Shown: positions 17,191 to 31,294, numbered from the stretch's first letter. The stretch: 32,000 nucleotides of DNA from Ruminococcus albus 7 = DSM 20455 (GCF_000179635.2 NC_014833.1:1500001-1532000); one strand, 5' to 3'. Notes: generated by a model not told the origin, from the letters alone. Program-made: numbers and translations.

Positions 17191-17970
17191 TCACCCCAGT
17201 GCAACGTCAAGCGACATCATAAGGGTGAAGCCTGCTGAGAACATCAGTACGCCTATGTTTGAATGTTCGCCTTCGGACATTTCGGGAATGAGTTCTTCTA
17301 CTACCACATACATCATGGCACCTGCTGCAAAGCTGAGCAGATAGGGCATCAGCGGAAGTATAAGTCCTGCAGATAGTATGGTCAGGACAGCGCCTGCAGG
17401 TTCTACCGCACCCGAAAGCACACCCAGTACGAAAGCCTTGCCGCGTGATTTGCCCTCGGCATGGAGGGGCATGGAGATTATGGCACCTTCGGGGAAATTC
17501 TGTATGGCGATACCCAGCGCGAGCGCCAGTGCGCCGCCTGCTGTCATTTCGGCTGTGCCAGACATAAGACCTGCGTAGACTATACCAACTGCCATGCCCT
17601 CGGGGATGTTGTGGAGAGTCACCGCCAGTACCATCATAGTTGTACGTGCCAGATGCGAAGGCAGACCCTCTGCCTTGTCGGCATTCATGTGCAGATGAGG
17701 TATCACGCAGTCAAGCAGCAGCAGGAAAAGCACTCCTGCCCAGAAGCCTGCAGCGGCAGGTACAAAGGACAGTTTGCCTTTATCAGAAGACATATCCATA
17801 GCGGGTATTATAAGGCTCCATATCGAGGCGGCGGTCATAACTCCTGCCGCAAATCCTGTAAGAGCGCGGCTGACATTTCTGCTGAGCTGCTTTTTCATGA
17901 AGAATACTCCCCCCGAGCCGAGGGCAGTACCCATAAACGGCAGCAGCAGACCGATAGTAACATCCTTCAT
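17191..17970 (-). CDS. ZIP-family divalent metal transporter (ZupT-like)
   Basis: Start trimmed to MKDVTIG (ATG at 17970). Signature HNIPEGMAVG and IAIQNFPEGAIIS. Eight-TM profile. Confidence 0.85.
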   Translation of the reverse strand: MKDVTIGLLLPFMGTALGSGGVFFMKKQLSRNVSRALTGFAAGVMTAASIWSLIIPAMDMSSDKGKLSFVPAAAGFWAGVLFLLLLDCVIPHLHMNADKAEGLPSHLARTTMMVLAVTLHNIPEGMAVGIVYAGLMSGTAEMTAGGALALALGIAIQNFPEGAIISMPLHAEGKSRGKAFVLGVLSGAVEPAGAVLTILSAGLILPLMPYLLSFAAGAMMYVVVEELIPEMSEGEHSNIGVLMFSAGFTLMMSLDVALG

Positions 17971-18038
17971 AATATCACCCGTCCTTATATTGTATATTAT
18001 GGTTATACGACTGACATACCAAATCAAATAGTGTTGTA

Positions 18039-18296
18039 TCACTTGTGGAGTCTGCCGAATATTCCTTTTTTGACGTATGGGACACATACGAAGCCTGTTG
18101 CGCTGTATCCGCTGTCTGCAAGGGCGGAAGTTATATCATCAAGAGTAATGGGGTCTTCGCTTATGATAACAGCTTCGCCTGCTTTATGGGATGAGGAAAC
18201 TTTATCAACGGAGAGCTTATTTCGCAAAGCATCATTGATATGGGCTTCACACATTGAGCACATCATTCCGTCTATCTTCACGGTAGTCTTATACAT
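18039..18296 (-). CDS. Heavy-metal-associated (HMA) domain protein, CopZ-like fold
   Basis: GMMCSMCE metal-binding loop at residues 10-17. GGAGG RBS overlaps the end of the upstream regulator gene. Confidence 0.8.
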   Translation of the reverse strand: MYKTTVKIDGMMCSMCEAHINDALRNKLSVDKVSSSHKAGEAVIISEDPITLDDITSALADSGYSATGFVCVPYVKKGIFGRLHK

Positions 18297-18310
18297 ACCG
18301 CCACCTCCTG

Positions 18311-18679
18311 CTATTTTTGTGAAAGTGCATAGCTTACGATCTGTTCTACGGTCTCTTCATCTGCACAGGAAGCTATCAGCATACTTATCTCGCCTGCCTT
18401 TTCGGCTGTGAGCCCGATCTTTGATACGAGATGTTCCTGAATGATGACACAGGGTGTAAAAAGACCGTTTGCTTCGGATACTCCTTTCTGGGTAAGGGTT
18501 ATCTGTCTGTAGGGCTCTTTTATTATAAGTTCTTCTGCGATGAGCTTTTTGCACATTTTAACGGCGCTTGCCTTGGCAACATGGAGATAATCCGCAATAT
18601 CCGTGGTGCGTACACGTTCACCGTTCTGTCCTAAAAGATATATGGTTATAAGGTATTTTTTCTGTGGTTCTGTGAGCAT
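18311..18679 (-). CDS. DtxR/MntR-family metal-dependent transcriptional regulator, short form (122 aa, no SH3-like domain)
   Basis: The winged-helix region YLITIYLL...VRTTDIADYLHVAKASAVKMCKKL...ITLTQKG aligns with the DtxR N-terminus, followed by a short helical domain. First gene of a regulator-HMA-ZIP operon. Confidence 0.78.
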   Translation of the reverse strand: MLTEPQKKYLITIYLLGQNGERVRTTDIADYLHVAKASAVKMCKKLIAEELIIKEPYRQITLTQKGVSEANGLFTPCVIIQEHLVSKIGLTAEKAGEISMLIASCADEETVEQIVSYALSQK

Positions 18680-18717
18680 ATATACTTCTCCTTCGGGGAT
18701 TCATTATCGACGGATAT

Positions 18718-18746
18718 ATCATATCACCCTTAAAAAAAGATGTCAA
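18718..18746 (-). promoter_or_regulatory. SigA-type promoter (TTGACA-17-TATGAT) of the regulator-HMA-ZIP operon
   Basis: The minus strand reads TTGACAtctttttttaagggtgaTATGAT. Confidence 0.55.
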
Positions 18747-18763
18747 CGTTTTTGAAAGAGGTA

Positions 18764-18779
18764 GTTAGTAAAATCTAAC
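18764..18779. promoter_or_regulatory. Perfect GTTAG-N6-CTAAC palindrome (candidate operator), 17 nt upstream of the -35 of the regulator operon
   Basis: tAGTTAGtaaaatCTAACTa. The arms extend to 7 bp. Confidence 0.5.
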
Positions 18780-18857
18780 TATTGCACAAAATCAATGGTT
18801 AGTTTAAACAAACGCTTTGTCATTCCTACGAAAATCATGATAATGCGAATAATATCC

Positions 18858-18886
18858 TTGACTTTGGGTAAGATAGAGGGTATAAT
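18858..18886 (+). promoter_or_regulatory. SigA-type promoter (TTGACT-17-TATAAT) of the DUF3793-flavodoxin operon
   Basis: TTGACTttgggtaagatagagggTATAAT. Confidence 0.6.
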
Positions 18887-18897
18887 AAATGCAACAG

Positions 18898-18918
18898 GTT
18901 AGGTTAAGCTAACCTAAC
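18898..18918. promoter_or_regulatory. Near-consensus DtxR/IdeR-type iron box (9-3-9 perfect dyad containing two overlapping GTTAR-N6-CTAAC units)
   Basis: GTTAGGTTA-AGC-TAACCTAAC. The inner 19 nt TTAGGTTAAGCTAACCTAA match the remembered consensus TTAGGTTAG(G/C)CTAACCTAA at 18 of 19 positions. It starts 11 nt after the -10 hexamer. Confidence 0.7.
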
Positions 18919-18937
18919 GCAAGGGAAGGAGAACAAG

Positions 18938-19519
18938 ATGTCTGCTAAGGAAAGAAGAAAAATAGAGAGCCTTATGGCGTTCCATGCAGCGCCTACACTT
19001 ATGGGTATCAAGTGCGGAAGTCTGCCTGCGTTCAATGCTAAAGAATACGACCTTCATGAGGTTGAACGTCTTTTTGCGGACGGATATTTCGGCAGCAGGA
19101 TAAATGCCAGATCGGTCACAAGATCATCGGGACGTATGCTTGTATACGTGTACGATAAGGTACTGCTGGAGAAGACACTTTCCGACAGGGATATAAGAGA
19201 TTTTCTGGCGGGATGCGGTTATGCTGATTCGTGGGATACCGTACAGTGCATCGACAGGCTTTGCAGCAGGCTTGGTGAGAAGGATTTCCCGCATGAGATA
19301 GGTATATTCCTCGGATATCCCCTGGAGGATGTCAAGGGCTTCATCGCTAACTGCGGACAAGGCTGCAAGCTTTGCGGAACATGGAAGGTATACGGCGATG
19401 TTGAAAAAGCCAAGGAGATGTTTGAACGCTTCGAGAATTGCAGGCTTCACCTTTGCAGAGAACTGAGAAATGGAAAAAAGCTGCGTAACTGCGCAGCTGA
19501 TGTCACTGCGGTGGCATAG
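18938..19519 (+). CDS. DUF3793 family protein
   Basis: Conserved core FPHEIGIFLGYPLEDVKGFI...CKLCGTWKVYGD, as in DUF3793 proteins. AAGGAG RBS. Flavodoxin follows 19 nt downstream. Confidence 0.72.
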   Translation: MSAKERRKIESLMAFHAAPTLMGIKCGSLPAFNAKEYDLHEVERLFADGYFGSRINARSVTRSSGRMLVYVYDKVLLEKTLSDRDIRDFLAGCGYADSWDTVQCIDRLCSRLGEKDFPHEIGIFLGYPLEDVKGFIANCGQGCKLCGTWKVYGDVEKAKEMFERFENCRLHLCRELRNGKKLRNCAADVTAVA

Positions 19520-19538
19520 ATCAAGGAGGTACTATACA

Positions 19539-19943
19539 ATGAAAACAGCAGTAATTTATTGGTCCGGAACAGGTAATACAGAGGCTATGGCAAATGCCGT
19601 TGCTGAGGGCGCAGGAGTATCCGCAGTGCAGGTATCTGCATTTGACGGTGATGTTTCTGAGTATGATGCACTTGCACTGGGCTGCCCTGCTATGGGTGCA
19701 GAAGAACTGGAGGATACTGAGTTCGAGCCTTTCTTCGCAGGTATCGAGGGTAAGATTAGCGGCAAGAAGCTTGCTTTGTTTGGTTCCTATGACTGGGGCG
19801 ACGGCGAATGGATGCGTCTGTGGGCGGACAGAGTAAAGGCTGCAGGTGCGGAGATCGTAGACGGCGAGGGTCTTATCTGCAACAATACCCCTGATGAGGA
19901 TGCACTTGCAAAGTGCCGCGAGCTGGGCAAAAAGCTTGCTTAA
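19539..19943 (+). CDS. fldA: Short-chain flavodoxin
   Basis: Start trimmed to MKTAVIYWSGTGNTEAMA (FMN phosphate loop T/S-x-T-G-x-T) behind AAGGAGG. 134 aa. GSYDWGDGEWM isoalloxazine loop. Confidence 0.9.
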   Translation: MKTAVIYWSGTGNTEAMANAVAEGAGVSAVQVSAFDGDVSEYDALALGCPAMGAEELEDTEFEPFFAGIEGKISGKKLALFGSYDWGDGEWMRLWADRVKAAGAEIVDGEGLICNNTPDEDALAKCRELGKKLA

Positions 19944-19981
19944 AGCATACACTCAAACCTTTTTATAGATACTGATGTGAG

Positions 19982-20013
19982 GGCTGCCGTGATATTGCGG
20001 CAGCCTTTGCAGT
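19982..20013 (+). terminator. Terminator of the flavodoxin operon
   Basis: Stem ggctgccg/cggcagcc followed by tttgcagttt. Confidence 0.7.
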
Positions 20014-20104
20014 TTGATATACTGTGTTATACCGCACAATGTCCGGAATGCGGCAGGGTATGACGGCGGTATATCTAAATTATATAGATTGACAAAAAGC
20101 AAAG

Positions 20105-20120
20105 GTTATACTCGGCTAAC
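20105..20120. promoter_or_regulatory. One-mismatch copy of the GTTAG-N6-CTAAC palindrome upstream of the feo promoter
   Basis: GTTATactcggCTAAC. Confidence 0.25.
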
Positions 20121-20155
20121 TTCTTTGTTATTCCGACAAAATCTGTTTATAAGTA

Positions 20156-20184
20156 TTGACATTGAGTTGCCGAAGATGTATCAT
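20156..20184 (+). promoter_or_regulatory. SigA-type promoter (TTGACA-17-TATCAT) of the feo operon
   Basis: TTGACAttgagttgccgaagatgTATCAT. Confidence 0.55.
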
Positions 20185-20194
20185 ATTATATGGA

Positions 20195-20210
20195 GTTAGC
20201 GACTCCTAAC
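20195..20210. promoter_or_regulatory. Perfect GTTAG-N6-CTAAC palindrome 10 nt after the feo -10 hexamer (candidate operator)
   Basis: GTTAGcgactcCTAAC. Confidence 0.55.
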
Positions 20211-20228
20211 AAAAATGGGGAGGTAAAG

Positions 20229-20441
20229 ATGATGCCATTATTATCTGCGAATGCAGGCGAAAGTTACACTATTTCACGCATAGGCGGTACTGCCGAAGTG
20301 CGCAGGCACCTTGAAGATCTGGGATTTGCTGTGGGAGGAAAAGTAACGGTCATCTCTGTGATGAGCGGAAATCTCATAGTGAACGTCAAGGAAACAAGGG
20401 TGGCAGTCAGCCGCGAACTGGCAATGAAGATCATGGTGTAA
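20229..20441 (+). CDS. feoA: FeoA-domain protein (first of two)
   Basis: Start trimmed to MMPLLSANAGESYTISRIGG behind GGGGAGG. SH3-like FeoA pattern (RRHLEDLGFAVGGKVTV). Confidence 0.85.
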   Translation: MMPLLSANAGESYTISRIGGTAEVRRHLEDLGFAVGGKVTVISVMSGNLIVNVKETRVAVSRELAMKIMV

Positions 20442-20454
20442 GGAGGAAGAGAAA

Positions 20455-20673
20455 ATGACGCTGAAAGAAGCAAAGATCGGTGATACCGTTACCGTTAAAA
20501 AGCTGACGGGTGAGGGCGCTGTAAAGCGCAGGATAATGGACATGGGTCTTACTAAGGGCGCTTCTGTGACGGTGCGCAAGGTAGCACCTCTGGGTGATCC
20601 CATAGAAGTCACGGTACGCGGTTATGAGCTTTCTATCCGCAAGGCAGATGCCGAAATGATAGAAGTGCTCTGA
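20455..20673 (+). CDS. feoA: FeoA-domain protein (second of two)
   Basis: LKEAKIGDTVTVKKL...KRRIMDMGLTKGASVTV is a typical FeoA pattern. AGGAGG RBS. Confidence 0.85.
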   Translation: MTLKEAKIGDTVTVKKLTGEGAVKRRIMDMGLTKGASVTVRKVAPLGDPIEVTVRGYELSIRKADAEMIEVL

Positions 20674-20688
20674 TTTTTTTGTATATAA

Positions 20689-20704
20689 GTTAGCCCGAGC
20701 TAAC
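20689..20704. promoter_or_regulatory. Perfect GTTAG-N6-CTAAC palindrome in the feoA2-feoB spacer (operator or RNA hairpin)
   Basis: GTTAGCccgaGCTAAC. 6-bp arms if read as a hairpin. Confidence 0.4.
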
Positions 20705-20722
20705 ACTAATGGAGGAATAAGT

Positions 20723-23137
20723 ATGAGCATAAAAATTGCGCTGGCGGGCAATCCCAACTGCGGAAAGACCACGCTGTTCAACGCATTGACAGGCTCTAAC
20801 CAGTTTGTGGGAAACTGGCCCGGAGTTACTGTTGAGAAAAAAGAAGGAAAACTGAAAAAACACAATGATGTCATAGTTACTGACCTGCCGGGAATATATT
20901 CCCTTTCACCGTACACACTTGAAGAAGTGGTAGCGCGTAACTATCTGATAGACGAGCATCCCGACGTGATACTCAATATCATCGACGGCACTAATCTTGA
21001 GAGAAATCTTTACCTGACAACTCAGCTTACCGAGATAGGTATACCCGTGGTATGTGCTGTTAATATGATGGATATCGTAAACAAGAACGGTGATAAGATA
21101 AACCTTACAAAGCTGAGCGAGGCACTGGGCTGCAAGGTCATGGAGATATCTGCACTGAAAGGCGACGGCATATCCGCGGCGGCTGAAGCTGCTGTATCGG
21201 CTGCCGAAACAAAACACGGCGGACCTGTACACCGTTTCAATGCTGCTATCGAGCACGCTATCGCACATATCGAAGAAGCCTGCGTTCATGAACTTCCCGA
21301 GGAACAGCAGAGATGGTACGCCATAAAGCTTTTCGAGCGTGATGATAAGGTCATAGAGAAGCTGGGCATAAAGGGCGAAAAGCTGGCTCACATCAACAAG
21401 GATATCGAAAAGGTGGAAAAGGAGCTTGATGATGACAGCGAATCCCTGATAACCAACGAGAGATACAATTATATAACAAGTATCATCGGCGGATGCTACA
21501 ATAAGAAGAACAAGGGCGCACTTTCCACTTCGGACAAGATAGACAAGGTAGTTACGAACAGGTGGCTGGGTCTGCCTATATTCGCAGCGATAATGTTCGC
21601 TGTGTACTGGATAGCCATGGTAGGTGTGGGCGCACCTCTGACGGATTTCACCAATGATAATATTTTCGGTGAGGACGGATTCCATCTGTTCGGCAGGGGT
21701 ACGGCTGAGTATGAGGCTGATGCGGAGGAGTACGCAAATGCTCAGCTTATCATAGACGGTTATGACGCTTATGTTGAAGCAAACGGCACAGCCCCCGAAG
21801 GTGAATTCACTTACGAAGTTGAAGACGAGGAAACACTGGAGATCTCCGAGGAGACCGCTGCTATTGCCGACTATGAAGATGCGCTGGCAAGTGTAGAAAA
21901 GATCGGTGATGAGCCCGATCCTGCTGATTACGGTACTTACATCCCCCCGATACCTGCACTGGCTGAAAAAGCTCTTGACAAAGCAGGTGCAGCCGACTGG
22001 CTCAAGGGTCTTATCATAGACGGTATCATCGCAGGTGTTGGTGCGGTGCTGGGATTTGTTCCTCAGATGCTGGTACTCTTCCTGATGCTGGCATTCCTTG
22101 AAGCCTGCGGATATATGTCACGTATAGCATTTGTACTTGACAGGATATTCCGTAAGTTCGGTCTTTCGGGAAAATCCTTCATACCCATGCTTGTAGGTGT
22201 AGGCTGCGGCGTGCCCGGTATCATGGCGAGCCGTACTATCGAAAACGAGCGTGACAGACGTATGACCATAATGACAACGACTTTCATTCCCTGCGGCGCG
22301 AAGGTACCTTTCATCGCTATGGTAGCAGGTGCTATATTCGGCGGTGCTGCATGGGTAGCTACCTCGGCGTACTTCGTTGGTATGGCGGCTATAATCGTAT
22401 CAGGCATAATGCTGAAAAAGACAAAGATGTTCGCAGGCGACCCTGCACCCTTCGTTATGGAGCTTCCTGCATATCATCTCCCTTCCTTCAAGAACGTTCT
22501 TCGTTCCATGTGGGAGCGCGGCTGGTCTTTCATCAAGAAGGCAGGTACAGTAATACTCATCTCGCAGGTAATTGTATGGTTCACAAGCCGCTTCGGTTTT
22601 GTTGACGGCAGCTTCGGTATGCTGGAGGAAGAAGAACTCAGCTCATCTATCCTGGCAAAACTCGGCAGTGTTATAGCATGGATATTCGTGCCTCTTGGCT
22701 GGGGCAACTGGCAGGCAGCTGTGGCTTCTGTTACAGGTCTTGTGGCTAAGGAGAATATCGTCGGAACAATGGGTACACTTTACGGCGGAGGAGACAGGAC
22801 TGTATGGCAGGAACTGGCAGTACAGTTCACAAGCATCACAGGATATTCCTTCCTTGTATTCAACCTGCTGTGCGCACCCTGCTTTGCAGCTATCGGTGCT
22901 ATCAAGCGTGAGATGAACAATGCAAAGTGGACATGGTTCGCTATCGGCTATCAGTGCGGATTTGCTTATGCTGCTGCATTTATGATAAATCAGTTCGGCG
23001 GTCTGTTCACAGGAAACGGCAATATCATCGGAGTAATATTTGCAGCAGCTGTTCTCGGCTGCATGGTATATATGCTGCTCCGTCCATACAAAGAGGCTTC
23101 AAAACTCGACAGCAAGCTTGCTGCTGCAGGTTCCTGA
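20723..23137 (+). CDS. feoB: Ferrous iron transporter FeoB (804 aa, with an acidic loop insertion)
   Basis: G-domain IALAGNPNCGKTTLFNALTG, DLPGIYSL and NMMD, followed by the polytopic gate-motif region (FVPQMLVLFL, FIPCGAKVP). Confidence 0.95.
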   Translation: MSIKIALAGNPNCGKTTLFNALTGSNQFVGNWPGVTVEKKEGKLKKHNDVIVTDLPGIYSLSPYTLEEVVARNYLIDEHPDVILNIIDGTNLERNLYLTTQLTEIGIPVVCAVNMMDIVNKNGDKINLTKLSEALGCKVMEISALKGDGISAAAEAAVSAAETKHGGPVHRFNAAIEHAIAHIEEACVHELPEEQQRWYAIKLFERDDKVIEKLGIKGEKLAHINKDIEKVEKELDDDSESLITNERYNYITSIIGGCYNKKNKGALSTSDKIDKVVTNRWLGLPIFAAIMFAVYWIAMVGVGAPLTDFTNDNIFGEDGFHLFGRGTAEYEADAEEYANAQLIIDGYDAYVEANGTAPEGEFTYEVEDEETLEISEETAAIADYEDALASVEKIGDEPDPADYGTYIPPIPALAEKALDKAGAADWLKGLIIDGIIAGVGAVLGFVPQMLVLFLMLAFLEACGYMSRIAFVLDRIFRKFGLSGKSFIPMLVGVGCGVPGIMASRTIENERDRRMTIMTTTFIPCGAKVPFIAMVAGAIFGGAAWVATSAYFVGMAAIIVSGIMLKKTKMFAGDPAPFVMELPAYHLPSFKNVLRSMWERGWSFIKKAGTVILISQVIVWFTSRFGFVDGSFGMLEEEELSSSILAKLGSVIAWIFVPLGWGNWQAAVASVTGLVAKENIVGTMGTLYGGGDRTVWQELAVQFTSITGYSFLVFNLLCAPCFAAIGAIKREMNNAKWTWFAIGYQCGFAYAAAFMINQFGGLFTGNGNIIGVIFAAAVLGCMVYMLLRPYKEASKLDSKLAAAGS

Positions 23138-23152
23138 TAAGGAGGAATAATA

Positions 23153-23329
23153 ATGACGGCATGGTTAAGCGCAAATATTGGAAACATAATCGTTATCATA
23201 ATACTTGCTGCAGTGATAGCTGCAGCAGTGCGCAGTGTGATAAAGGATAAAAGGTCCGGAAAGAGCAGCTGCGGCAGCGGCTGTGCGCACTGTGCACTTC
23301 ACGATAAGTGCCATGCCGGCAGGAAATAA
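23153..23329 (+). CDS. FeoB-associated Cys-rich membrane peptide (58 aa; not in the ORF track)
   Basis: AAGGAGG RBS. One TM helix (IGNIIVIIILAAVIAAAV) followed by SSCGSGCAHCALHDKCH. Starts 15 nt after the feoB stop. Confidence 0.75.
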   Translation: MTAWLSANIGNIIVIIILAAVIAAAVRSVIKDKRSGKSSCGSGCAHCALHDKCHAGRK

Positions 23330-23361
23330 GCCAAAATATGATCTCCCATATTCTGCAGAGT

Positions 23362-23396
23362 ACCCCCGTATCCTGATCGTGGATACGGGGGTTCTT
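23362..23396 (+). terminator. Probable terminator of the feo operon
   Basis: 12-bp stem acccccgtatcc/ggatacgggggt. The U-tract is weak (tctt). Confidence 0.5.
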
Positions 23397-23401
23397 ACAT
23401 A

Positions 23402-23437
23402 CAAAAAAATGCTGCACAGCTTACCGCCGTGCAGCAT
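23402..23437 (-). terminator. Rho-independent terminator of the DUF2325 gene
   Basis: Stem atgctgcac/gtgcagcat followed by T7 on the minus strand. Confidence 0.75.
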
Positions 23438-23447
23438 TTGTATGTTG

Positions 23448-23729
23448 TCAGCTTCTGTATTCGCTGAGAAGGTTCTTCAGTGCGCTTGCACTTGATGAAT
23501 GAAGATGTCTTACAGGTGTGCCCGACTTTTCTGTGTGCTTTTTCACACCGCCGAGCATTTTATGTGAACACGTTCCCGTGAATACAATAACAAGATCGGG
23601 TTTGCCTATCTTGTTTTCAAAATCGGCAGGCATCTGGGTGAATACTTTTGACTTGCATTTGTATGAACTGCATATATCCTTGTATCGTCCTGCCATACGG
23701 TCGTTGCCGCCTACTATAACTACGCTCAT
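23448..23729 (-). CDS. DUF2325 domain protein
   Basis: MSVVIVGGNDRM...PDLVIVFTGTCSHKM...HLHSSSASALKNLL matches my memory of the DUF2325 pattern (GG...D-x-V-I-x-F-T-x-x-x-S-H...SSS). AAAGGAG RBS. Confidence 0.65.
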   Translation of the reverse strand: MSVVIVGGNDRMAGRYKDICSSYKCKSKVFTQMPADFENKIGKPDLVIVFTGTCSHKMLGGVKKHTEKSGTPVRHLHSSSASALKNLLSEYRS

Positions 23730-23749
23730 TTTATACTCCTTTCGTTGTG

Positions 23750-23765
23750 GTTATATAAGACTAAC
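23750..23765. promoter_or_regulatory. One-mismatch palindrome copy in the DUF2325 leader
   Basis: GTTATataagaCTAAC. Confidence 0.35.
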
Positions 23766-23783
23766 TAAGTACTTCTAAAAACG

Positions 23784-23799
23784 GTTAGCAGTAACTAAC
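23784..23799. promoter_or_regulatory. Perfect GTTAG-N6-CTAAC palindrome 7 nt after the DUF2325 -10 hexamer (candidate operator)
   Basis: cGGTTAGcagtaaCTAACCg. The arms extend to 7 bp. Confidence 0.55.
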
Positions 23800-23806
23800 C
23801 GACAAT

Positions 23807-23835
23807 ATTATAACATAGAGCATCTGATTTGTCAA
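23807..23835 (-). promoter_or_regulatory. Consensus SigA promoter (TTGACA-17-TATAAT) of the DUF2325 gene
   Basis: The minus strand reads TTGACAaatcagatgctctatgtTATAAT. Confidence 0.6.
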
Positions 23836-23880
23836 GAGTTTTATTCAAATTATTTAATCAGCCCGCTGACACGATACATC

Positions 23881-23897
23881 TGTACTGTAACAGTACA
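23881..23897. promoter_or_regulatory. Perfect 17-bp palindrome TGTACTGTAACAGTACA in the DUF2325/iorA intergenic region
   Basis: 8-bp arms around a central A. It lies 45 nt beyond the DUF2325 -35 and about 100 nt upstream of the iorA -35. Confidence 0.4.
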
Positions 23898-23999
23898 TCT
23901 CTTTAAAAGCGTACTTATCAAACTGCATCAAATGATTATCGGAGCGTCATTCAATACCGATATGGAATTTTATGGTCTAAAAAACTTATATCATACCTC

Positions 24000-24028
24000 T
24001 TGCAATTCGCGGCTGAGTATGATATAAT
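24000..24028 (+). promoter_or_regulatory. SigA-type promoter (TTGCAA-17-TATAAT) of the ior operon
   Basis: TTGCAAttcgcggctgagtatgaTATAAT. Confidence 0.55.
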
Positions 24029-24121
24029 AAATTTATGTATCTATAAGGTATAATTTATCTTTGACGTATCACACGAAATGAAGGCTGCATAAAGCAGTCC
24101 TGCATGAAAGGAAAGAGAGCT

Positions 24122-25858
24122 ATGAAAAAACTGATGCTTGGTAATGAGGCATTTGCCAGAGGTCTTTATGAGGCGGGCTGTAAGGTCGTTTCTTCTTACC
24201 CGGGTACACCCTCTACCGAGATAACCGAGGCTGCTGCTAAGTATGATGAGATATATGCTGAGTGGGCACCGAATGAGAAAGTCGCTATGGAGGTGGCACT
24301 GGGCGCTTCCATCGCAGGTGTAAGAAGCTTCTGCGGAATGAAGCACGTTGGTCTTAACGTTGCTGCCGATCCGCTGTATACCGCAGGCTATACAGGCGTT
24401 ACAGGCGGTATGGTCATCGCTGTTGCTGATGACCCCGGTATGCATTCTTCACAGAACGAACAGGATTCCCGTCATCACGCTGCGGCTTCAAAGACAATGA
24501 TGATCGAACCCTCCGATTCTGCTGAGTGCAAGGAGTACACAAAGATGGCATTCGAGCTTTCCGAAAAGTTCGATGTGCCTGTTATAGTAAGAATGTCCAC
24601 AAGAGTGGCACATTCACAGTCTGCAGTTGAACTCTGCGACAGGGAAGAGCGCGAGCCTATACCTTACGAGAAGAACGCTGCCAAGTACGTTATGATGCCC
24701 GGCAACGCTATCCGCAGACACCCGATCGTTGAGGACAGGATGAGAGCTATCGCTGAGTACGGCGAGAACTGCCCCCTCAATACAGTTGAGTATAATGATA
24801 CCGAGATCGGTGTTGTTACCGCAGGTATCTGCTACCAGTACGCAAAGGAAGCACTGGGCAACAAGGTAAGCTACCTGAAGCTGGGTATCGTTAACCCCAT
24901 GCCTGTGAATATCATCAAGGACTTCGCTTCAAAGTGCAAGAAGATAATCGTTATCGAGGAACTCGACGACGTTATCGAAACACACTGCAAGAAGAACGGT
25001 ATCGAATGTCAGGGTAAGGAACTCTTCGGCTGGCTGGGTGAGATCAATCAGGTCATCATCAGGGATAAGGTACTGGGTATCAAGCCAGAGTTCGATACAT
25101 TCGAGGACACTGTTCCCGTTAGACCCCCCGTTATGTGTGCAGGCTGCCCTCACAGAGGTTTGTTCTACTGCCTGAGCAAGCTGAAAGTGACTGTATCGGG
25201 CGATATCGGATGCTATACACTGGGTGCTACCGCTCCTCTGTGCGCTATGGATTCCACTATATGCATGGGCGCTTCCATATCCGCACTCCACGGCTACAAC
25301 AAGGCACTGGGCGCTGATGCTGAGAAGAAGTCTGTTGCTGTTATCGGTGATTCCACTTTCATGCACAGCGGTATGACAGGTCTTGTTAATATAGCTTACA
25401 ACGCTACAAATTCCACAGTTATCATACTGGATAACTCCATAACAGGTATGACAGGTCATCAGCAGAACCCCACCACAGGCAAGAACCTCAAGGGCGACCC
25501 TGCTGCTGCTGTAAATCTTGAAGAACTCTGCCACGCTATCGGCATCAAGAGCGTACGCGTAGTTGATCCTTATCACATGGCTGAAACCGAAGCAGTCATC
25601 AAGGAAGAACTTGCAAAGGAAGAACCTTCCGTTATCATTTCAAGAAGACCCTGCGCTCTGCTGAAATACGTTAAGCACAAGCCCGCACTCCACTGCGATC
25701 AGGACAAGTGCGTAGGCTGCAAGCAGTGTCTGAAGATCGGATGTCCGGCAATATCTATCCACGACGGCAAGATGGTCATAGACCATACTCAGTGCGTAGG
25801 CTGCGGTATCTGCACCGAGATGTGCAAGCTGGGCGCTATCAAGGGAAATGAAGAATAA
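24122..25858 (+). CDS. iorA: Indolepyruvate:ferredoxin oxidoreductase, alpha subunit
   Basis: Start trimmed to MKKLMLGNEAFARGLYEAGCKVVSSYPGTPSTEI. TPP-binding GDSTFMHSG. C-terminal 2x[4Fe-4S] CVGCKQCLKIGCP / CVGCGICTEMC. Confidence 0.9.
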   Translation: MKKLMLGNEAFARGLYEAGCKVVSSYPGTPSTEITEAAAKYDEIYAEWAPNEKVAMEVALGASIAGVRSFCGMKHVGLNVAADPLYTAGYTGVTGGMVIAVADDPGMHSSQNEQDSRHHAAASKTMMIEPSDSAECKEYTKMAFELSEKFDVPVIVRMSTRVAHSQSAVELCDREEREPIPYEKNAAKYVMMPGNAIRRHPIVEDRMRAIAEYGENCPLNTVEYNDTEIGVVTAGICYQYAKEALGNKVSYLKLGIVNPMPVNIIKDFASKCKKIIVIEELDDVIETHCKKNGIECQGKELFGWLGEINQVIIRDKVLGIKPEFDTFEDTVPVRPPVMCAGCPHRGLFYCLSKLKVTVSGDIGCYTLGATAPLCAMDSTICMGASISALHGYNKALGADAEKKSVAVIGDSTFMHSGMTGLVNIAYNATNSTVIILDNSITGMTGHQQNPTTGKNLKGDPAAAVNLEELCHAIGIKSVRVVDPYHMAETEAVIKEELAKEEPSVIISRRPCALLKYVKHKPALHCDQDKCVGCKQCLKIGCPAISIHDGKMVIDHTQCVGCGICTEMCKLGAIKGNEE

Positions 25859-25873
25859 CAGTGAGGTAAATAT

Positions 25874-26290
25874 ATGGATTTTGATAATGATGACAGCAAG
25901 GTAGCCGGTACCGTCGGTGCTTTGATAGGTGCAGCACTTGCAATAGGTCTGTGGTGTCTTATAGGGCTTCTTGGCAGAGTGGCTGTGATCGGTGGTGTTG
26001 CACTGTTTTTAGGTGCTTACGGCGGATATTATCTGCTTGGGAAAGGTATGAGCAAGGTAGGACTTATAATCTCGACAGTAATAGTTTTGATATCTGTGTA
26101 CGTGGCTACAAGACTTAACTGGGCTATATCCATTTCAAGAGCAACCGATATGTCGGTCTCAGAGTGCTACAAGATGCTTCCGAAGCTTATCAAATTGGCT
26201 GCAGCATCCGGATCTTTCTATAAGGATCTTGTTGTTGGATACCTGATAACCTTTTTCGGCGGAGTCGTTTTGATGGCAAAGATGAGATGA
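25874..26290 (+). CDS. Small 4-TM membrane protein, paralog 1 (unknown family)
   Basis: GAGG RBS, 15 nt after the iorA stop. Four predicted hydrophobic helices. Shares GALIGA..G.WCLIG.LG...GY.LLG.GMS..G...TR.NWAI...FY.DL.VGY with the next gene. Confidence 0.7.
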   Translation: MDFDNDDSKVAGTVGALIGAALAIGLWCLIGLLGRVAVIGGVALFLGAYGGYYLLGKGMSKVGLIISTVIVLISVYVATRLNWAISISRATDMSVSECYKMLPKLIKLAAASGSFYKDLVVGYLITFFGGVVLMAKMR

Positions 26291-26465
26291 ACTTAAATAC
26301 TGTTACCGGAATTAAGAGTGAATGATGTATATGATCTATACTGCAGTATCCGGATCGGTACCTATGGGCAGTCATTGATATAAATGTCTGCTTTGCGGGA
26401 TCTGAATGTATTTCGGCGATACATACAGAACGGATCTGCATTGGAAAAAATATGAGGATATTAAA

Positions 26466-26879
26466 ATGTATGATAATAAAATAAAAGGGACGATAGGCGC
26501 ACTTATAGGTGCATTCCTTGGAATGGGTGTTTGGTGTCTTATCGGTGCCCTCGGCATTATGGCTGGTCTTGGCGGAGCAGCTATATGTATATGTACCATA
26601 ATGGGGTACAAGCTGCTGGGCGAAGGTATGAGCAGGATAGGTGCAGCAATTGTATTCGTGATAATAGTTGCCACGGTGTATTTTTCCACACGTATGAACT
26701 GGGCGATAGAGCTCCATAAGCTTGCACCCCAGTATTCTCTTGGCAAGTGCTTCAATAAGGTGCTGCGTCTGCTGAAGATGTTCGGCATTGAAGGACGTTT
26801 CTATCTTGACCTGCTCGTAGGTTACATACTTACGATATTAGGTTTCTTCTGGGCAAGAAGAAAATTCCCGAGTCTGTGA
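26466..26879 (+). CDS. Small 4-TM membrane protein, paralog 2 (unknown family)
   Basis: Start trimmed to the ATG at 26466 behind GAGGA. Roughly half of the first 77 aligned residues are identical to paralog 1, counted by eye. Confidence 0.7.
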   Translation: MYDNKIKGTIGALIGAFLGMGVWCLIGALGIMAGLGGAAICICTIMGYKLLGEGMSRIGAAIVFVIIVATVYFSTRMNWAIELHKLAPQYSLGKCFNKVLRLLKMFGIEGRFYLDLLVGYILTILGFFWARRKFPSL

Positions 26880-26940
26880 TATGCGGAACCAAGACGGCGA
26901 TATTAAGATAATATACGTTAACTATAAGGAGTTGTAATAA

Positions 26941-27516
26941 ATGGAAACTAAGTCTATTATGATAGTCGGCGTAGGCGGACAGGGTTCGCTGCTGGCTTCA
27001 AGGATATTAGGTAATGTACTGCTCTCGCAGGGCTTTGATGTAAAGGTCAGCGAGGTACACGGCATGAGCCAGCGCGGCGGCTCGGTAGTTACCTATGTAA
27101 AATACGGCGATAAGGTGTATTCACCAGTTGTTGAAAAGGGCGAGGCTGATATCATCATCAGCTTTGAGACACTTGAGGCTGCAAGATATGTGCAGTACCT
27201 GAAAAAGGGCGGTCATATAGTAACCTCTACCCAGCAGATAGACCCAATGCCCGTTATCAACGGTACTGCTGTATATCCCGATGATATCATCGGCAAGCTG
27301 AAAAAGCAGGGTATCAGCGTTGTTGACGTTGATGCGCTGACACTGGCTGAACAGGCAGGTACAGCTAAGGCTTCAAACGTTGTGCTCATGGGTGTTGTGT
27401 CCATGAAAATGGACTTTTCCGAGGACGTATGGCAGGCAGCACTGGAAAGCTGCGTTCCTGCTAAGTTCCTGGAGCTTAACAAGAAGGCTTTTGCTCTCGG
27501 CAGAGCAGCAGTCTGA
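26941..27516 (+). CDS. iorB: Indolepyruvate:ferredoxin oxidoreductase, beta subunit
   Basis: IMIVGVGGQGSLLASRILG...HGMSQRGGSV is a typical IorB/POR-gamma-like motif. Confidence 0.9.
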   Translation: METKSIMIVGVGGQGSLLASRILGNVLLSQGFDVKVSEVHGMSQRGGSVVTYVKYGDKVYSPVVEKGEADIIISFETLEAARYVQYLKKGGHIVTSTQQIDPMPVINGTAVYPDDIIGKLKKQGISVVDVDALTLAEQAGTAKASNVVLMGVVSMKMDFSEDVWQAALESCVPAKFLELNKKAFALGRAAV

Positions 27517-27742
27517 AAATAATCTATCGGATAAGTGCAGCCGTTGCACGTAACGGCTGTCAGAGTGAACGGCATAAGTTTCATGAGATCAGACCGTCTG
27601 GCTGAACTATAGGGATTATGTCGTTTACTAAAAACCAAAGCGATTTAGCGGTTTAAAATATCAAATTTACAAAGGAAAATATCGGTAATATATGGTATGG
27701 AATGGATATTCGTACATATCTTACCAGAAGGAGTGTGAGCCA

Positions 27743-29056
27743 ATGGCTGAGAAGATCTATTGGAACAAGGATATCGAGACTATGGAACTCGATAAGATGA
27801 AAGCTCTCCAGAGTGAGAGGCTTGTCAAGCAGGTAAGACACGTATGGGATAACGTTCCTTACTACCGTCATCTGATGGAGGAAAAGGGAGTTACTCCCGA
27901 TGATATCAAGGGTATCGACGATCTCCACAAGCTGCCTTTTATCTCTAAGGCTGACCTGAGAGACAATTATCCTGACGGTCTGCTGGCAGTGCCTAAGTCA
28001 GAATGCGTTCGCATACACGCTACCAGCGGTACTACAGGCAAGAGAGCGATTGCTTTCTATACCCAGAACGATGTTGATCTGTGGGAGAACTGCGTTGCCC
28101 GCGCTATCACAGCAGCAGGCGGTACAAAGGATGACGTTGTACACGTAGCATACGGCTACGGACTTTTCACAGGCGGTCTGGGAGTTCACGGAGGTTCTCA
28201 TAAGGTGGGATGTCTGACACTGCCTGTATCCTCAGGCAATACCGAAAGACAGATACAGTTCATGCAGGATCTTGGTTCTACCATACTCTGCTGTACACCT
28301 TCCTATGCGGCATACATAGGCGAAACACTGCAGGAAATGGGACTTACTCCCGATGATATCAAGCTCAAGGCAGGTATCTTCGGTGCTGAGCCCTGGACAG
28401 AGGAGATGCGCAAGCAGATCGAGCAGAGCCTGGGCATAAAGGCTTATGATATCTATGGTCTTACAGAGACTTCCGGTCCCGGTGTGGCTTTTGAATGTGA
28501 AGAGCAGACAGGTATGCATATAAACGAGGATCACTTCATCGCTGAGATAATAGATCCCGAAACCGGTGAAGTTCTTCCCGAGGGCGAAAAGGGCGAGCTG
28601 GTGTTCACAAGTATCACCAAGGAAGCATTCCCCCTGCTTAGATACCGCACAAGGGATATATGCATACTCAACCGCAAAAAATGTTCCTGCGGCAGAACAC
28701 TCATCAAGATGTGTAAGCCTATGGGCAGAAGCGATGATATGCTGATAATCAAGGGCGTAAATGTATTCCCGTCCCAGATAGAAACTGTACTGCTGAAGGA
28801 CTTCAAGGCACAGCCCAACTATCAGATCGTAGTTGACAGAATAGGTAATGCTGATACCTTTGAGATCAAGGTAGAACTGACAGACGATATGATCGGTGAT
28901 ACCATAAAGTCCGTATCCGAGCTTGAAAAGAAGCTAAGCGCTGATATCGTACAGATACTCGGCATAAAGGCTAAGATAAGCCTTGTTGAGCCTAAGAGCA
29001 TCCCGCGTTCCGAGGGCAAGGCTGTAAGAGTTATCGACAAGAGGAAACTGGTATGA
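27743..29056 (+). CDS. paaK: Phenylacetate-CoA ligase family protein
   Basis: Start trimmed to MAEKIYWNKDIETM behind GAAGGAG. AMP-binding HATSGTTGK and YGLTE. C-terminal PaaK-type domain. Confidence 0.9.
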   Translation: MAEKIYWNKDIETMELDKMKALQSERLVKQVRHVWDNVPYYRHLMEEKGVTPDDIKGIDDLHKLPFISKADLRDNYPDGLLAVPKSECVRIHATSGTTGKRAIAFYTQNDVDLWENCVARAITAAGGTKDDVVHVAYGYGLFTGGLGVHGGSHKVGCLTLPVSSGNTERQIQFMQDLGSTILCCTPSYAAYIGETLQEMGLTPDDIKLKAGIFGAEPWTEEMRKQIEQSLGIKAYDIYGLTETSGPGVAFECEEQTGMHINEDHFIAEIIDPETGEVLPEGEKGELVFTSITKEAFPLLRYRTRDICILNRKKCSCGRTLIKMCKPMGRSDDMLIIKGVNVFPSQIETVLLKDFKAQPNYQIVVDRIGNADTFEIKVELTDDMIGDTIKSVSELEKKLSADIVQILGIKAKISLVEPKSIPRSEGKAVRVIDKRKLV

Positions 29057-29556
29057 GTTGTCTTGGTGTGCTTTTTGCAGTTCCCGAAGATGTTGTCAGA
29101 AAACTCGGAGATATGCCGCTGGAAGAACGTCCCGGATATATATCCGAGGAACTGGAAGATGAGTATTTTGAGGAATATCCCGAGCGCACATACGAACTTG
29201 ACAAGTCATGGGACGCTATGCACCGCCTGCTGACAGACGGTACGCTTTGCTTTGGCGGTGAAGGACCTCTGGCAAAGGCTGTTCTCGGCGGTGAGGTGCT
29301 GTACTTCGATGATGACCACGATGATTACATCATAACAGCGAAAACTCCGGACGAAGTCAGAAAAGTCTATGAAGCTTTACTTGGTCTTGAAGACAGTGAT
29401 ATCAAGCGCAGGTACTTTGCTATACCTGCCGATGAGTACGAAGACAAGGGCGAAGAAGACTTTGAGTATACTCTGGAATATCTGCAGGATAGTCTGAGTT
29501 TCTGGAGATATGCGGCTGAACATGGTCTGTGGGTGCTTTTTACGGCCGACCAATAG
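29053..29556 (+). CDS. yfbM: YfbM (DUF1877) family protein
   Basis: 167 aa. ELDKSWDAMHRLLTDG, PLAKAVLGG and a C-terminal LWVLFTAD line up with E. coli YfbM as I recall it. ATG overlaps the paaK TGA (ATGA). Confidence 0.75.
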   Translation: MSCLGVLFAVPEDVVRKLGDMPLEERPGYISEELEDEYFEEYPERTYELDKSWDAMHRLLTDGTLCFGGEGPLAKAVLGGEVLYFDDDHDDYIITAKTPDEVRKVYEALLGLEDSDIKRRYFAIPADEYEDKGEEDFEYTLEYLQDSLSFWRYAAEHGLWVLFTADQ

Positions 29557-29605
29557 AAAGAGATACTTACACAAGTAAACGATAAATAAGAAAGAAGGTC
29601 AGAAA

Positions 29606-30040
29606 ATGACAATAAAGCAGTTATCTATATTTGTTGAAAACAAGCCCGGCAGAATGTCGGACGTTACACATACACTTAAAGACGGCAATATAAATATACG
29701 TGCGATAACTACTGCTGACAGCAGTGATTTCGGTATTTTAAGACTTATCGTTGACGATACCGACAAGGCTATCGAGTGCCTGAAAAAAGCAGATTATCTC
29801 GTCAAGATGACAAACGTTATAGCCGTTACTGCTGAGGACAAGCCCGGCGGAATGGCAGCTATAATGAAGACCCTCTACAAGGCTAACATAAGCGTTGAGT
29901 ATATGTACTCCGCATTCCTTAATCCCTCTGATGTTACAGCCTGCCTGATACTTCGCGTTGACAGCAACGAAAATGCTATCGAGGCGCTGACCGATGCAGG
30001 TTTCAAGCTGCTTTCTGCTGATGATCTGGCAAAGTTCTGA
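29606..30040 (+). CDS. Tandem ACT-domain protein (the type commonly encoded next to paaK)
   Basis: QLSIFVENKPGRMSDVT... and a second VIAVTAEDKPGGMAAIM... ACT beta-alpha-beta starts. Confidence 0.85.
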   Translation: MTIKQLSIFVENKPGRMSDVTHTLKDGNINIRAITTADSSDFGILRLIVDDTDKAIECLKKADYLVKMTNVIAVTAEDKPGGMAAIMKTLYKANISVEYMYSAFLNPSDVTACLILRVDSNENAIEALTDAGFKLLSADDLAKF

Positions 30041-30054
30041 TAAATAGACGATAT

Positions 30055-30101
30055 GCGCTGCTGATACTGCTTATAATAGCAGCTTTGGCAGCGCTGTTTT
30101 C
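30055..30101 (+). terminator. Probable terminator of the ior-paaK operon
   Basis: Outer stem gcgctgc/gcagcgc with inner stem ctgct/agcag, followed by tgttttc. Confidence 0.55.
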
Positions 30102-30119
30102 ATATAACGGAGACAAAAA

Positions 30120-31085
30120 ATGAGAGACAGAAAACTTGATAAAGCCTGCGCCATAAGTGCACTGGCTGTAATGCCGTTTGTTATGTTGCTGTTTATCGCA
30201 GAGTCCGTTGTTAAGGACAAATTTGCACCCAAAACACTGATAGGTGCAGATGGTCTTTTACAGATGAAAAAGTACTGCGTAACGCTGATAGAATATCATG
30301 CAGCAGGCGCGGTGTTTATCTTCATACTTACTATGCTTGCGGCATGGTTATTTCGCAAGTTAAGCGGCAGCAAGAACAATTCGCGGCGCAAAAGTATTAT
30401 CGCAGCAGTTCTGCTTGCGGTGGGTTGGCTGCTTTTATTCCCGATTTATACGGGCTGTGATGTTCAGGCAGAATCCGCAGGCTGCAAGGGCGTTCCTATA
30501 TTTCGTGTGGCAGATCTGCTTACGAAGCTGAACGCAGATATAGATTCTGAGGAAGTTGAAATCGGGTATACGGGTAAGCCCATGTTCGCAAATTATTCCT
30601 ATAGATACTCAAGAAACCAATGGCCCGAAAACGAATACGCCTTTGTTACCCTATCCAAGAAGACCATTGGTCAGATATCACATGAGGACATGAAAAAACT
30701 CAACAATGGTATCTACCGCTATGCCGATCACGAATTCAAGGTCTACAGTAATTCCAGAATTATCGCAAATATTGACGGTGTCGGAAATGTGGATGATATA
30801 TCGCAGGAGGTCATAACTCTGGAGTTCGATCCCGAAACACGTATGATATACCGTGATCTCATCTGTGATGACGAATCCGAATTGCCTATGATGTACTATA
30901 TTTTCAGAAAAAACGGCAGGTTTGTAGCGGAATGTCCTGCTAATAACGATACCGATTGTTATGTATCGGGTGCATACAATAGCAATTTGGAGATATGGAT
31001 AGAAGCACGCGACCTTGTACGCGACAAGACGGTCCGTGTCAGTAATGTCATCACCTGTGAACATACCGAACACATTGAGGAATAA
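30120..31085 (+). CDS. Membrane-anchored hypothetical protein (3 N-terminal TM helices plus a soluble domain of about 200 aa)
   Basis: Long ORF with a GGAG-like RBS and hydrophobic N-terminal segments. No recognisable motif. Confidence 0.55.
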   Translation: MRDRKLDKACAISALAVMPFVMLLFIAESVVKDKFAPKTLIGADGLLQMKKYCVTLIEYHAAGAVFIFILTMLAAWLFRKLSGSKNNSRRKSIIAAVLLAVGWLLLFPIYTGCDVQAESAGCKGVPIFRVADLLTKLNADIDSEEVEIGYTGKPMFANYSYRYSRNQWPENEYAFVTLSKKTIGQISHEDMKKLNNGIYRYADHEFKVYSNSRIIANIDGVGNVDDISQEVITLEFDPETRMIYRDLICDDESELPMMYYIFRKNGRFVAECPANNDTDCYVSGAYNSNLEIWIEARDLVRDKTVRVSNVITCEHTEHIEE

Positions 31086-31112
31086 TAGTACTCGGAAGTC
31101 TGTGAATAAAAT

Positions 31113-31128
31113 GTTAACCAAGGCTAAC
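31113..31128. promoter_or_regulatory. One-mismatch palindrome copy far upstream of the ferredoxin gene
   Basis: GTTAAccaaggCTAAC. Confidence 0.25.
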
Positions 31129-31294
31129 AACAAAGCTTGCCATATACCCTATATCCGACAGGATATATAGGTCAATGAAAAATATACATCAAATCGGAAT
31201 AAGTAAAAAACAACGTATTTACTGACTATTTCTTACATTCACAGGTGAAATGCGGAAGAGGGAAAACAATTAGTGAAGACTAACTGTTGAATTA

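Follow-up and report, generated by a model that had tools for sequence, protein, structure and literature searches.

Introduction

Iron control in Firmicutes is usually attributed to Fur. In Actinobacteria, proteins of the IdeR/DtxR type act from a 19-bp iron box (TTAGGTTAGSCTAACCTAA) and repress iron uptake. The subject of this report is a 16-bp palindrome, GTTAG-N6-CTAAC (hereafter the box), in the Firmicute Ruminococcus albus 7. Several copies lie in one stretch of 32,000 nucleotides of its chromosome (NC_014833.1:1500001-1532000; below called the window, with positions counted from its first nucleotide), close to genes of the Feo iron uptake system, of flavodoxin and ferredoxin, and of a 122-aa protein with the DtxR fold, here named REG.

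The closest described systems are known in some detail. One IdeR dimer occupies the CCTAA repeats 1 and 3 of the iron box, and the dissociation constant for a half site is 78 nM (PMC8464063). Within the DtxR family, a metal selectivity rule assigns the Fe type to proteins with Cys at the position of DtxR C102 (PMC11672702). For the archaeal regulator TroR of Haloferax volcanii, the motif TTTAGGC-N3-CCTAAA was obtained by chromatin immunoprecipitation sequencing, with tandem sites about 30 bp apart; under iron-sufficient conditions uptake is repressed and storage is induced (PMC10783522). Among anaerobic Firmicutes, a study of C. difficile Fur (PMC6311696) describes the induction of feo and flavodoxin by iron limitation, and in Faecalibacterium duncaniae excess Fe2+ represses feoAABC, which is co-induced with flavodoxin (PMC10781979). 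The results below support the presence of a regulon of the IdeR/DtxR iron-box type in a Firmicute.

Results

A pattern scan of the window gave five perfect boxes, starting at 18764, 18898, 20195, 20689 and 23784. When the window was shuffled with its dinucleotide composition preserved, 0.07 perfect copies were expected and none of 100 shuffles attained five. At one mismatch or less, 12 boxes were found against 0.78 expected; those with one mismatch start at 18798, 18903, 20105, 23750, 31113, 31269 and 31295. All 12 are intergenic. Our gene model has 27 intergenic regions that are 40 bp or longer, and the boxes are confined to five of them. The original prediction, which had been made from this DNA alone, is thereby reproduced in its details: it had listed exactly the same five perfect copies and all of the one-mismatch copies except 18798 and 31269, and had placed every copy in non-coding DNA.

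One genome per species was scanned with an alignment of REG relatives. This gave 41 loci (589 kb) from Ruminococcus, Oscillospiraceae and Eubacterium sp. CAG:786, with REG relatives 30-80% identical; genes were assigned with a codon-usage gene caller, which reproduces the Pfam-supported genes (single loci and contigs are cited below by L numbers). The 41 loci contain 128 perfect and 104 one-mismatch boxes, 232 together, and 38 of the 41 have at least one perfect box. In the window and the 41 loci combined, 241 of 244 boxes are intergenic, while intergenic DNA amounts to 16%. Boxes stand upstream of feoA1 in 32 loci, between feoA2 and feoB in 25, and upstream of DUF2325 in 21, of REG in 17 and of DUF3793 in 14. 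Conservation at orthologous promoters, which had been proposed as a check on the boxes, is thus observed in the 41 related genomes. An alignment of the regulator-DUF3793 intergenic region from seven species showed that the half-sites and the −35 and −10 elements are invariant, while the six-base spacers and the remaining sequence vary. A census of every 5-N(0-12)-5 inverted repeat in intergenic DNA placed GTTAG-6-CTAAC first, with 133 copies against 0.13 expected. Ranks 2 to 6 (18-51 copies) are shifted forms of the same repeat, and all other repeats have at most 13 copies.

The original prediction had itself named a generic repeat of the repetitive extragenic palindrome (REP) kind as the finding that would speak against it. 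Across the 41 loci, boxes occur at 0.65 per kb up to a distance of 3 kb from core genes; over the remaining 277 kb the figure is 0.069 per kb, a ten-fold difference. The 19 distant boxes again stand in front of genes linked to metals or heme (a MacB/FtsX ABC system, a Trep_Strep membrane protein, a Shr-like heme-binding protein, enolase and ferredoxin). No perfect box was present in six control loci, 72 kb in all, that surround unrelated genes of Ruminococcus, and none of the boxes is covered by an Rfam family. Since the stem sequence is invariant and shows no compensatory changes, an RNA structure is argued against. Where boxes occur in tandem, the commonest start-to-start distance is 34-35 bp.

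Two further observations concern boxes beside other genes. Enolase has boxes upstream in two genomes of the REG lineage (L006:23-262, L007:8989-9159), and it recurs three times among the genes that flank boxes in a separate, motif-first scan of metagenomes (see below); it is an unexpected recurrent target for an iron box. In a second locus of Ruminococcus sp. YE71 (L041:9942-10010), three boxes are followed by what appears to be a remnant of the N-terminal part of REG (MLPEQQKKYLITIY...), upstream of an ABC transporter of the MacB/FtsX type.

The core of the palindrome, TTAG-N6-CTAA, equals repeats 1 and 3 of the classical 19-bp iron box, i.e. inverted CTAA-containing pentamers placed one helical turn apart from centre to centre. 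The resemblance is closest at the composite box 18898-18918, which consists of two 16-mers with a 5-bp offset. Here 18 of 19 positions (18899-18917, TTAGGTTAAGCTAACCTAA) agree with the two-dimer consensus of IdeR/DtxR, that is, with the full palindrome of four repeats; the remaining sites of the window are single-dimer units. It is very probable that the boxes are operators of the DtxR/IdeR type and that they define a regulon. Control of these promoters by Fur was considered as well and was rejected, because no Fur box (7-1-7, TGATAATNATTATCA-like, at most three mismatches) was found in 18680-18937, 19944-20228, 23730-24121 or 31086-31445.

The position of the boxes relative to the promoters was then compared. 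At three promoters the box lies just behind the −10 element. The promoter of DUF3793 (18938-19519, plus strand) and the short-chain flavodoxin (19539-19943, plus strand) reads TTGACT-17-TATAAT; its −10 ends at 18886 and the composite box starts 12 nt later. A terminator (19976-20011) lies downstream of flavodoxin. The promoter of the feo genes, TTGACA-17-TATCAT, has a −10 that ends at 20184, and the perfect box 20195-20210 starts 11 nt later; a one-mismatch box (20105-20120) lies upstream of this promoter. The genes that follow on the plus strand are feoA1 (20229-20441), feoA2 (20455-20673), feoB (20723-23137) and a FeoB-associated Cys-rich peptide (23153-23329), and another perfect box (20689-20704) lies in the gap from the stop codon of feoA2 to the start codon of feoB. 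The gene for the 93-aa DUF2325 protein (23448-23729, minus strand) has the promoter TTGACA-17-TATAAT, whose −10 ends at 23807 on the minus strand. Its tandem boxes span 23750-23799, the one at 23750 with one mismatch and the perfect one at 23784 being 34 bp apart, and the second starts 8 nt past the −10. The arrangement foreseen by the original prediction was therefore present at all three promoters, with distances of 12, 11 and 8 nt in place of the 7-11 nt it had given.

Two other promoters have their boxes upstream of the −35 element. One is that of REG (Rumal_1319; 18311-18679, minus strand), TTGACA-17-TATGAT. The perfect box 18764-18779 (GTTAGTAAAATCTAAC), box 3 of the conserved divergent region, is separated by 18 bp from the regulator −35 downstream of it, and box 2 (18798-18813, GTTAGTTTAAACAAAC), which has one mismatch here, is perfect in L005, L009 and L011. 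The same unit continues on the minus strand with a gene for an HMA-domain protein with an MxCxxC motif (18039-18296), which starts 14 nt 3' of REG, and ends with a ZIP (ZupT-like) metal importer (17191-17970), whose start is probably at 17970 and not at 18087. The other is the promoter of the 56-aa 2×[4Fe-4S] ferredoxin (Rumal_1335; 31446-31616, plus strand), which lies 12 kb farther along. Three one-mismatch boxes (31113, 31269 and 31295, spanning 31113-31310) lie upstream of its −35 (31348), a geometry that differs from that of a classical repressor, as at the regulator promoter. The ferredoxin boxes may be a site of activation or of anti-repression. For all of these genes, from ZIP to ferredoxin, Pfam agrees with the assignments that had been made earlier.

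The genes of the window were identified as Rumal_1305-1335 by matching their Pfam order to the table of a published RNA sequencing study (PMC6776011 supplement 8), which gives normalised expression for R. albus 7 in mid-exponential phase in modified Balch medium, assumed not to be iron-limited. The ten genes Rumal_1317-1326 (ZIP, HMA, regulator, DUF3793, flavodoxin, FeoA, FeoA, FeoB, Cys peptide and DUF2325) have values of 0.85-2.8. On either side of this silent block, Rumal_1316 has 120 and Rumal_1327 (indolepyruvate oxidoreductase) 152, and the block comprises exactly the transcription units with boxes at their promoters. The ferredoxin gene is among the strongest, with 2037 in pure culture. 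Between DUF2325 and ferredoxin (24104-31085) lies one gene cluster with IorA/IorB indolepyruvate:ferredoxin oxidoreductase, phenylacetate-CoA ligase, DUF1877 and ACT. It is well expressed (27-484) and so is apparently not under the control of the DUF2325 boxes, which lie 200 bp upstream of its promoter.

Ferredoxin rises 3.9-fold (from 2037 to 7974) when R. albus 7 is grown together with Wolinella succinogenes, and the box-controlled block stays silent.

The original prediction had summed up these sites as one compact metal regulon. The spacing of the half-sites, the conservation in 41 genomes, the common silence of the genes and the absence of a Fur-like box all bear this out, and the metal is probably iron, in view of the content of the regulon and by analogy with F. 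duncaniae. In the literature searched we found neither an account of this regulon nor a link of DUF2325 or DUF3793 to iron control, which does not prove that there is none.

We next consider the protein that the same prediction had put forward as the iron-sensing repressor. Residues 1-58 of REG match the winged-helix DNA-binding domain PF01325 (Fe_dep_repress, N-terminal; E=1.3e-10), while PF02742, the metal-binding and dimerisation domain, was not detected in REG by Pfam. The nearest NCBIfam models are those of MntR. In the AlphaFold2 model (mean predicted local distance difference test score, 89.5), helices a1-a3 and the wing are followed by dimerisation helices at 63-87, 91-104 and 107-119. 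Searched with Foldseek, the model matched Bacillus subtilis MntR (1on2) best, with a TM-score of 0.82 and 28% identity, and next DR2539, DtxR and IdeR, with TM-scores of 0.76-0.79 to DtxR and IdeR.

The ligand positions of REG were aligned with those of ScaR, SloR, MntR, the REG subfamily and box-linked homologs. All six MntR ligands, D8, E11, H77, E99, E102 and H103, are substituted, by K, I, C, M, A and S respectively; positions 8, 99, 102 and 103 correspond to the primary-site ligands M10, C102, E105 and H106 of DtxR. Neither REG nor its whole subfamily has the residues by which a metal site of this family is recognised (M10, C102, E105 and H106 with H79, E83 and H98 in DtxR; the six in MntR), and the subfamily alignment has no conserved Cys or His. 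At position 8 almost all members have Lys; the residue is Arg in L024 and Asn in P0032. Because the classical metal-binding residues are all lost, REG is unlikely to sense iron in the classical manner, and as Lys8 and non-ligand residues take the place of the metal site, we regard it as metal-independent. A Lys at a metal-ligand position has been engineered in MntR E11K (PDB 4hx4, 4hx8), and REG, where Lys occurs naturally at position 8, seems to be the counterpart of that variant in nature. On the other hand, conservation in the subfamily extends to the recognition helix V-S/A-K-A-S-T/A-V-K-M and to many basic residues, so DNA binding has very probably been retained; that REG binds the boxes themselves appears reasonably likely from these features. 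Of the earlier proposal, then, the DtxR fold and probably the binding to the boxes stand, but the role of iron sensor is not supported, in view of the loss of all six ligands and of the canonical paralogs that lie beside the box elsewhere.

With the REG alignment as query, an exhaustive profile search found 1353 representatives at E≤1e-10; at the stricter E≤1e-30 there were 9. Among the best 118 aligned representatives (clusters at 50% identity), about 50 are ligand-less: position 8 is K or R, positions 11, 99 and 102 hold non-ligand residues that are hydrophobic for the most part, Cys is frequent at 103, and the helix reads '..S.VKM'. The others are mainly canonical (DEHCEH, NEHCEH etc.). REG is a member of a sizeable and apparently uncharacterised clade. 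No description of a ligand-less DtxR clade was found in the literature searched, although this is no proof of its absence.

Genes of this clade lie within iron-box regulons, at the ends of feo operons or with HMA or ZIP neighbours, and some show translational coupling with a canonical DtxR gene. Two divergent REG clades have an HMA gene directly 3' of REG. Its product in the window, L010, L011 and L039 is a soluble protein of 83-97 aa. In most of L027-L038 (e.g. L030:10368-10739) REG overlaps by 8 nt with the gene of a 123-aa protein; this protein has an N-terminal membrane helix, an HMA domain that contains CxxC, and a GCCG motif resembling that of the FeoB-associated peptide. In L014, L016, L017 (R. 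albus 8), L018 and L023, boxes precede a two-gene unit of FeoA1 and REG with no adjoining feoB and with DUF2325-DUF3793 before it. REG is monocistronic in L001-L007. An obligatory partnership of REG with HMA or FeoA1 was rejected, since either adjacency recurs but is not universal.

Canonical DtxR proteins form a very large family (at least 7972 matches), and two of the 41 loci, L036 and L039, have a second two-domain DtxR paralog with intact ligands adjoining REG. In L036 the REG-like gene (4498-4890) overlaps the canonical gene (4877-5263) by 14 nt in one operon that is divergent from feoA-feoA-feoB, which suggests that the two proteins work together. The association of box and canonical protein was also seen when metagenomes were scanned by motif alone, with two perfect boxes 4-30 bp apart required. 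This gave at least 120 stretches; of the 120 listed, 53 encode homologs of the regulon genes of the window and 27 hold 28 DtxR-like genes, 24 canonical and 4 ligand-less. The 24 canonical proteins have the ligand pattern [D/N/M]-E-H-C-E-H and a helix S-K-P-S-V-S. A Pfam scan of 150 of the 238 open reading frames (ORFs) that flank these boxes counted FeoA 14 times, DtxR domains 10, FeoB 8, methyltransferase 7 and DUF3793 5, and ABC transporters, enolase and NEAT/Shp heme proteins are also among the flanking ORFs. In L159 a canonical regulator joins the gene set of the window, and the order is ZIP, REG-like, flavodoxin, DUF3793, boxes, canonical DtxR, boxes, FeoA, FeoA, FeoB. When the logos of the boxes in REG-lineage and canonical-lineage loci were compared, no difference was seen that assigns the binder.

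Some rumen metagenome contigs (L099, L124, L054 and L104) carry very dense boxes, for example 25 in 9.9 kb at L099:376-9861. Many boxes of L099 are preceded by 'cgcccgggca', and GC-rich motifs of the 'ccgggc' or 'ggccggc' type adjoin boxes of L124, L054 and L104 on either side. No Feo or DtxR homologs were found on these dense-box contigs, where the boxes precede many short ORFs, and they look like a different system with the same palindrome. The 2.3-kb rumen contig L121 has iteron-like arrays at 612-773 and 1864-1959, with six and three GTTAGCATAGGCTAAC-type boxes, 20-40 bp apart.

Finally, the only Rfam family detected in the window is a tetrahydrofolate (THF) riboswitch at 31889-31987 (plus strand, 80.9 bits), which follows a consensus promoter (31801-31829) and precedes a gene annotated FolC (Rumal_1336) just past the end of the window.

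Discussion

The boxes are very probably single-dimer operators of the DtxR/IdeR type, and they unite what is probably an iron-starvation regulon in Ruminococcus and Oscillospiraceae. Its members are feoA-feoA-feoB-Cys peptide, DUF3793-flavodoxin, DUF2325 and REG-HMA-ZIP, and the ferredoxin promoter also has sites upstream. Under iron sufficiency, dimers of the DtxR family would occupy the boxes and initiation at the fld, feo and DUF2325 promoters would be blocked; a box 8-12 nt downstream of the −10 suggests that RNA polymerase is hindered at these three promoters. Binding of a dimer upstream of the ferredoxin promoter may aid its expression, and activation through binding is reported for IdeR at iron-storage genes (PMC11672702). 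We propose that a canonical Fe-type DtxR paralog supplies the iron signal, as in the relatives with both genes in one locus, and that REG, which the regulon itself would produce, acts back on these operators as a metal-independent brake or modulator. This two-tier model is the one we prefer for R. albus 7, tentatively. Taken as a whole, with the operators, the iron-starvation regulon and the two-tier logic, the explanation falls only a little short of an even chance. The statistics of the sites, their conservation and geometry, the fold and ligand loss of REG and the common silence of the genes in culture are observed; who binds, iron as the signal and the two tiers are inferred steps. For the ligand-less clade in general, a metal-independent occupation of operators is conceivable on similarly tentative terms, whether as a feedback brake, as an antagonist or heterodimer partner of the Fe sensor, or as a DNA-binding module fed by a separate protein.

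Several observations weigh against the two-tier model in R. albus 7. No canonical DtxR paralog is annotated among the first approximately 2000 genes of the RNA sequencing table; none with detectable similarity was found on PLSDB plasmid records by tblastn, no chromosomal cluster of R. albus 7 appeared among the best 120 matches in two protein searches, and there was no match in the PMC4300822 supplement. In two Ruminococcus species known from metagenome-assembled genomes, the canonical paralog is an orphan among housekeeping genes, and no box lies closer to it than 6 kb. The relatives have a fourth box directly after the regulator −10 (e.g. L001:9964-9979), which in R. albus 7 (18680-18717) has decayed, so that only the boxes upstream of the −35 remain. 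The REG mRNA, moreover, is as low as that of its targets, which fits REG as a target of the regulon and also a tight autorepression.

In the main alternative REG, as the only DtxR-family regulator of R. albus 7, is the sole repressor at the boxes and perceives iron in a non-canonical way. The signal could then pass through the HMA protein, through the cytosolic domain of FeoB (as proposed for FeoC), through an unrecognised ligand site, or through FeoA as an SH3-like domain acting in trans; the FeoA fold is that of the third (SH3-like) domain of full-length DtxR. REG adjoins boxes in nearly all 41 loci and across several gene arrangements, boxes flank the REG promoter in relatives, the inverted-repeat census offers no other enriched palindrome as a REG operator, and a canonical paralog was not found for R. 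albus 7 in the places searched. The HMA gene downstream of REG in two divergent clades, with its frequent 8-nt overlap in L027-L038, and the FeoA1-REG operons without feoB point in the same direction, and the low expression of the block, at 1-3 where truly silent genes have 0-0.5, would suit a steady state under autorepression. Nevertheless, no cluster of Cys, His or carboxylate residues is conserved across the subfamily, the adjacencies to HMA and FeoA1 fail where REG is monocistronic, and elsewhere the same box is linked to canonical sensors. A sole role of REG seems somewhat less likely than the two-tier model. If REG were instead a classical IdeR/DtxR repressor, as first proposed, with binding to the boxes that follows the uptake of Fe2+ at metal sites of its own, its Fe_dep_repress domain, its DtxR/MntR fold and its location among the boxes would be accounted for. 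But the replacement of all six ligands, by residues that differ further within the subfamily, and the missing PF02742 match make this very improbable.

The regulon might also answer to Zn, Mn, Co or Cu. The ZupT-like importer and HMA protein in the REG operon, a P-type ATPase beside feoB in relatives and the MntR models nearest to REG would suit such a signal. It seems improbable, however, because the conserved core consists of FeoAB and flavodoxin, with NEAT, Shp and Shr heme proteins elsewhere, the box-linked canonical paralogs have the Fe-type Cys at the C102 position and some have Met at M10, and in F. duncaniae feoAABC responds to iron. The least credible possibility is that the palindromes are not DtxR-type operators at all but a generic repeat, RNA hairpins or attenuators, or operators of an unrelated family such as Fur. 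Some boxes do score as terminator-like hairpins (e.g. 23801-23782), and dense arrays of the palindrome occur on contigs L099 and L121. Yet over 244 sites the stem is invariant, not covarying, and the spacer free, sites occur upstream of the −35 as well as in 5' leaders, and neither the uneven density, with distant sites before metal and heme genes, nor the lack of Rfam families and Fur-like boxes agrees with such an origin.

The DtxR/IdeR-type box thus appears to organise Feo uptake and the choice between flavodoxin and ferredoxin in cellulolytic Clostridia of rumen and gut, and the motif-first scan suggests that it is widespread in anaerobes. As a simple marker in the sequence, it may be used to predict which genes of a metagenome respond to iron, and it gives DUF2325, DUF3793 and the FeoB-associated peptide a testable context in the response to iron starvation. 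The ligand-less REG poses the question of how a metalloregulator fold works without metal; a metal-independent role, if true, would be a regulatory logic not described for metalloregulators.

Compared with the known systems, the R. albus regulon is closest to that of IdeR and DtxR. It shares with the Actinobacterial box the CTAA/TTAG half-sites and their spacing as repeats 1 and 3, the repression of iron uptake (here probable) and upstream sites at a gene of the iron-using or storage type. In contrast, the usual unit here is a 16-bp palindrome for a single dimer, frequently repeated in tandem at 34-35 bp, and the additional conserved base lies 3' of CTAA (CTAAC) instead of 5' (CCTAA). The proteins are two-domain proteins without the SH3-like domain, the hosts are Clostridia, and the local regulator has no metal ligands. 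TroR has the same TTAG-N6-CTAA spacing and tandem motifs, but is archaeal, and the likeness is drawn from the DNA sites. MntR has the two-domain architecture and the closest solved fold, but its Mn ligand set is absent from REG, and the MntR regulon of B. subtilis comprises mntH and mntABC, as opposed to Feo and flavodoxin here. With the Fur regulons of Clostridia it has in common Feo uptake and the switch from ferredoxin to flavodoxin, under another regulator family and another box. Like the small winged-helix protein FeoC at the end of gamma-proteobacterial feo operons, REG in L020-L038 either closes the operon feoA-feoA-feoB-(Cys peptide)-REG or stands one gene before its end, and the operon of F. 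duncaniae was given the name feoAABC by its authors. Unlike FeoC, REG has the DtxR fold, and a separate FeoC-like protein (PF09012, weak match) is present in L039. Taken together, the operator and the logic of the regulon are familiar from IdeR/DtxR and TroR, the fold from MntR and the output from C. difficile Fur. What differs is the Clostridia hosts, the tandem single-dimer palindromes, the conserved membership of DUF2325, DUF3793 and the FeoB-associated peptide, and the embedded ligand-less clade. The regulon is solid but familiar in type, and the ligand-less paralog is its surprising and testable part.

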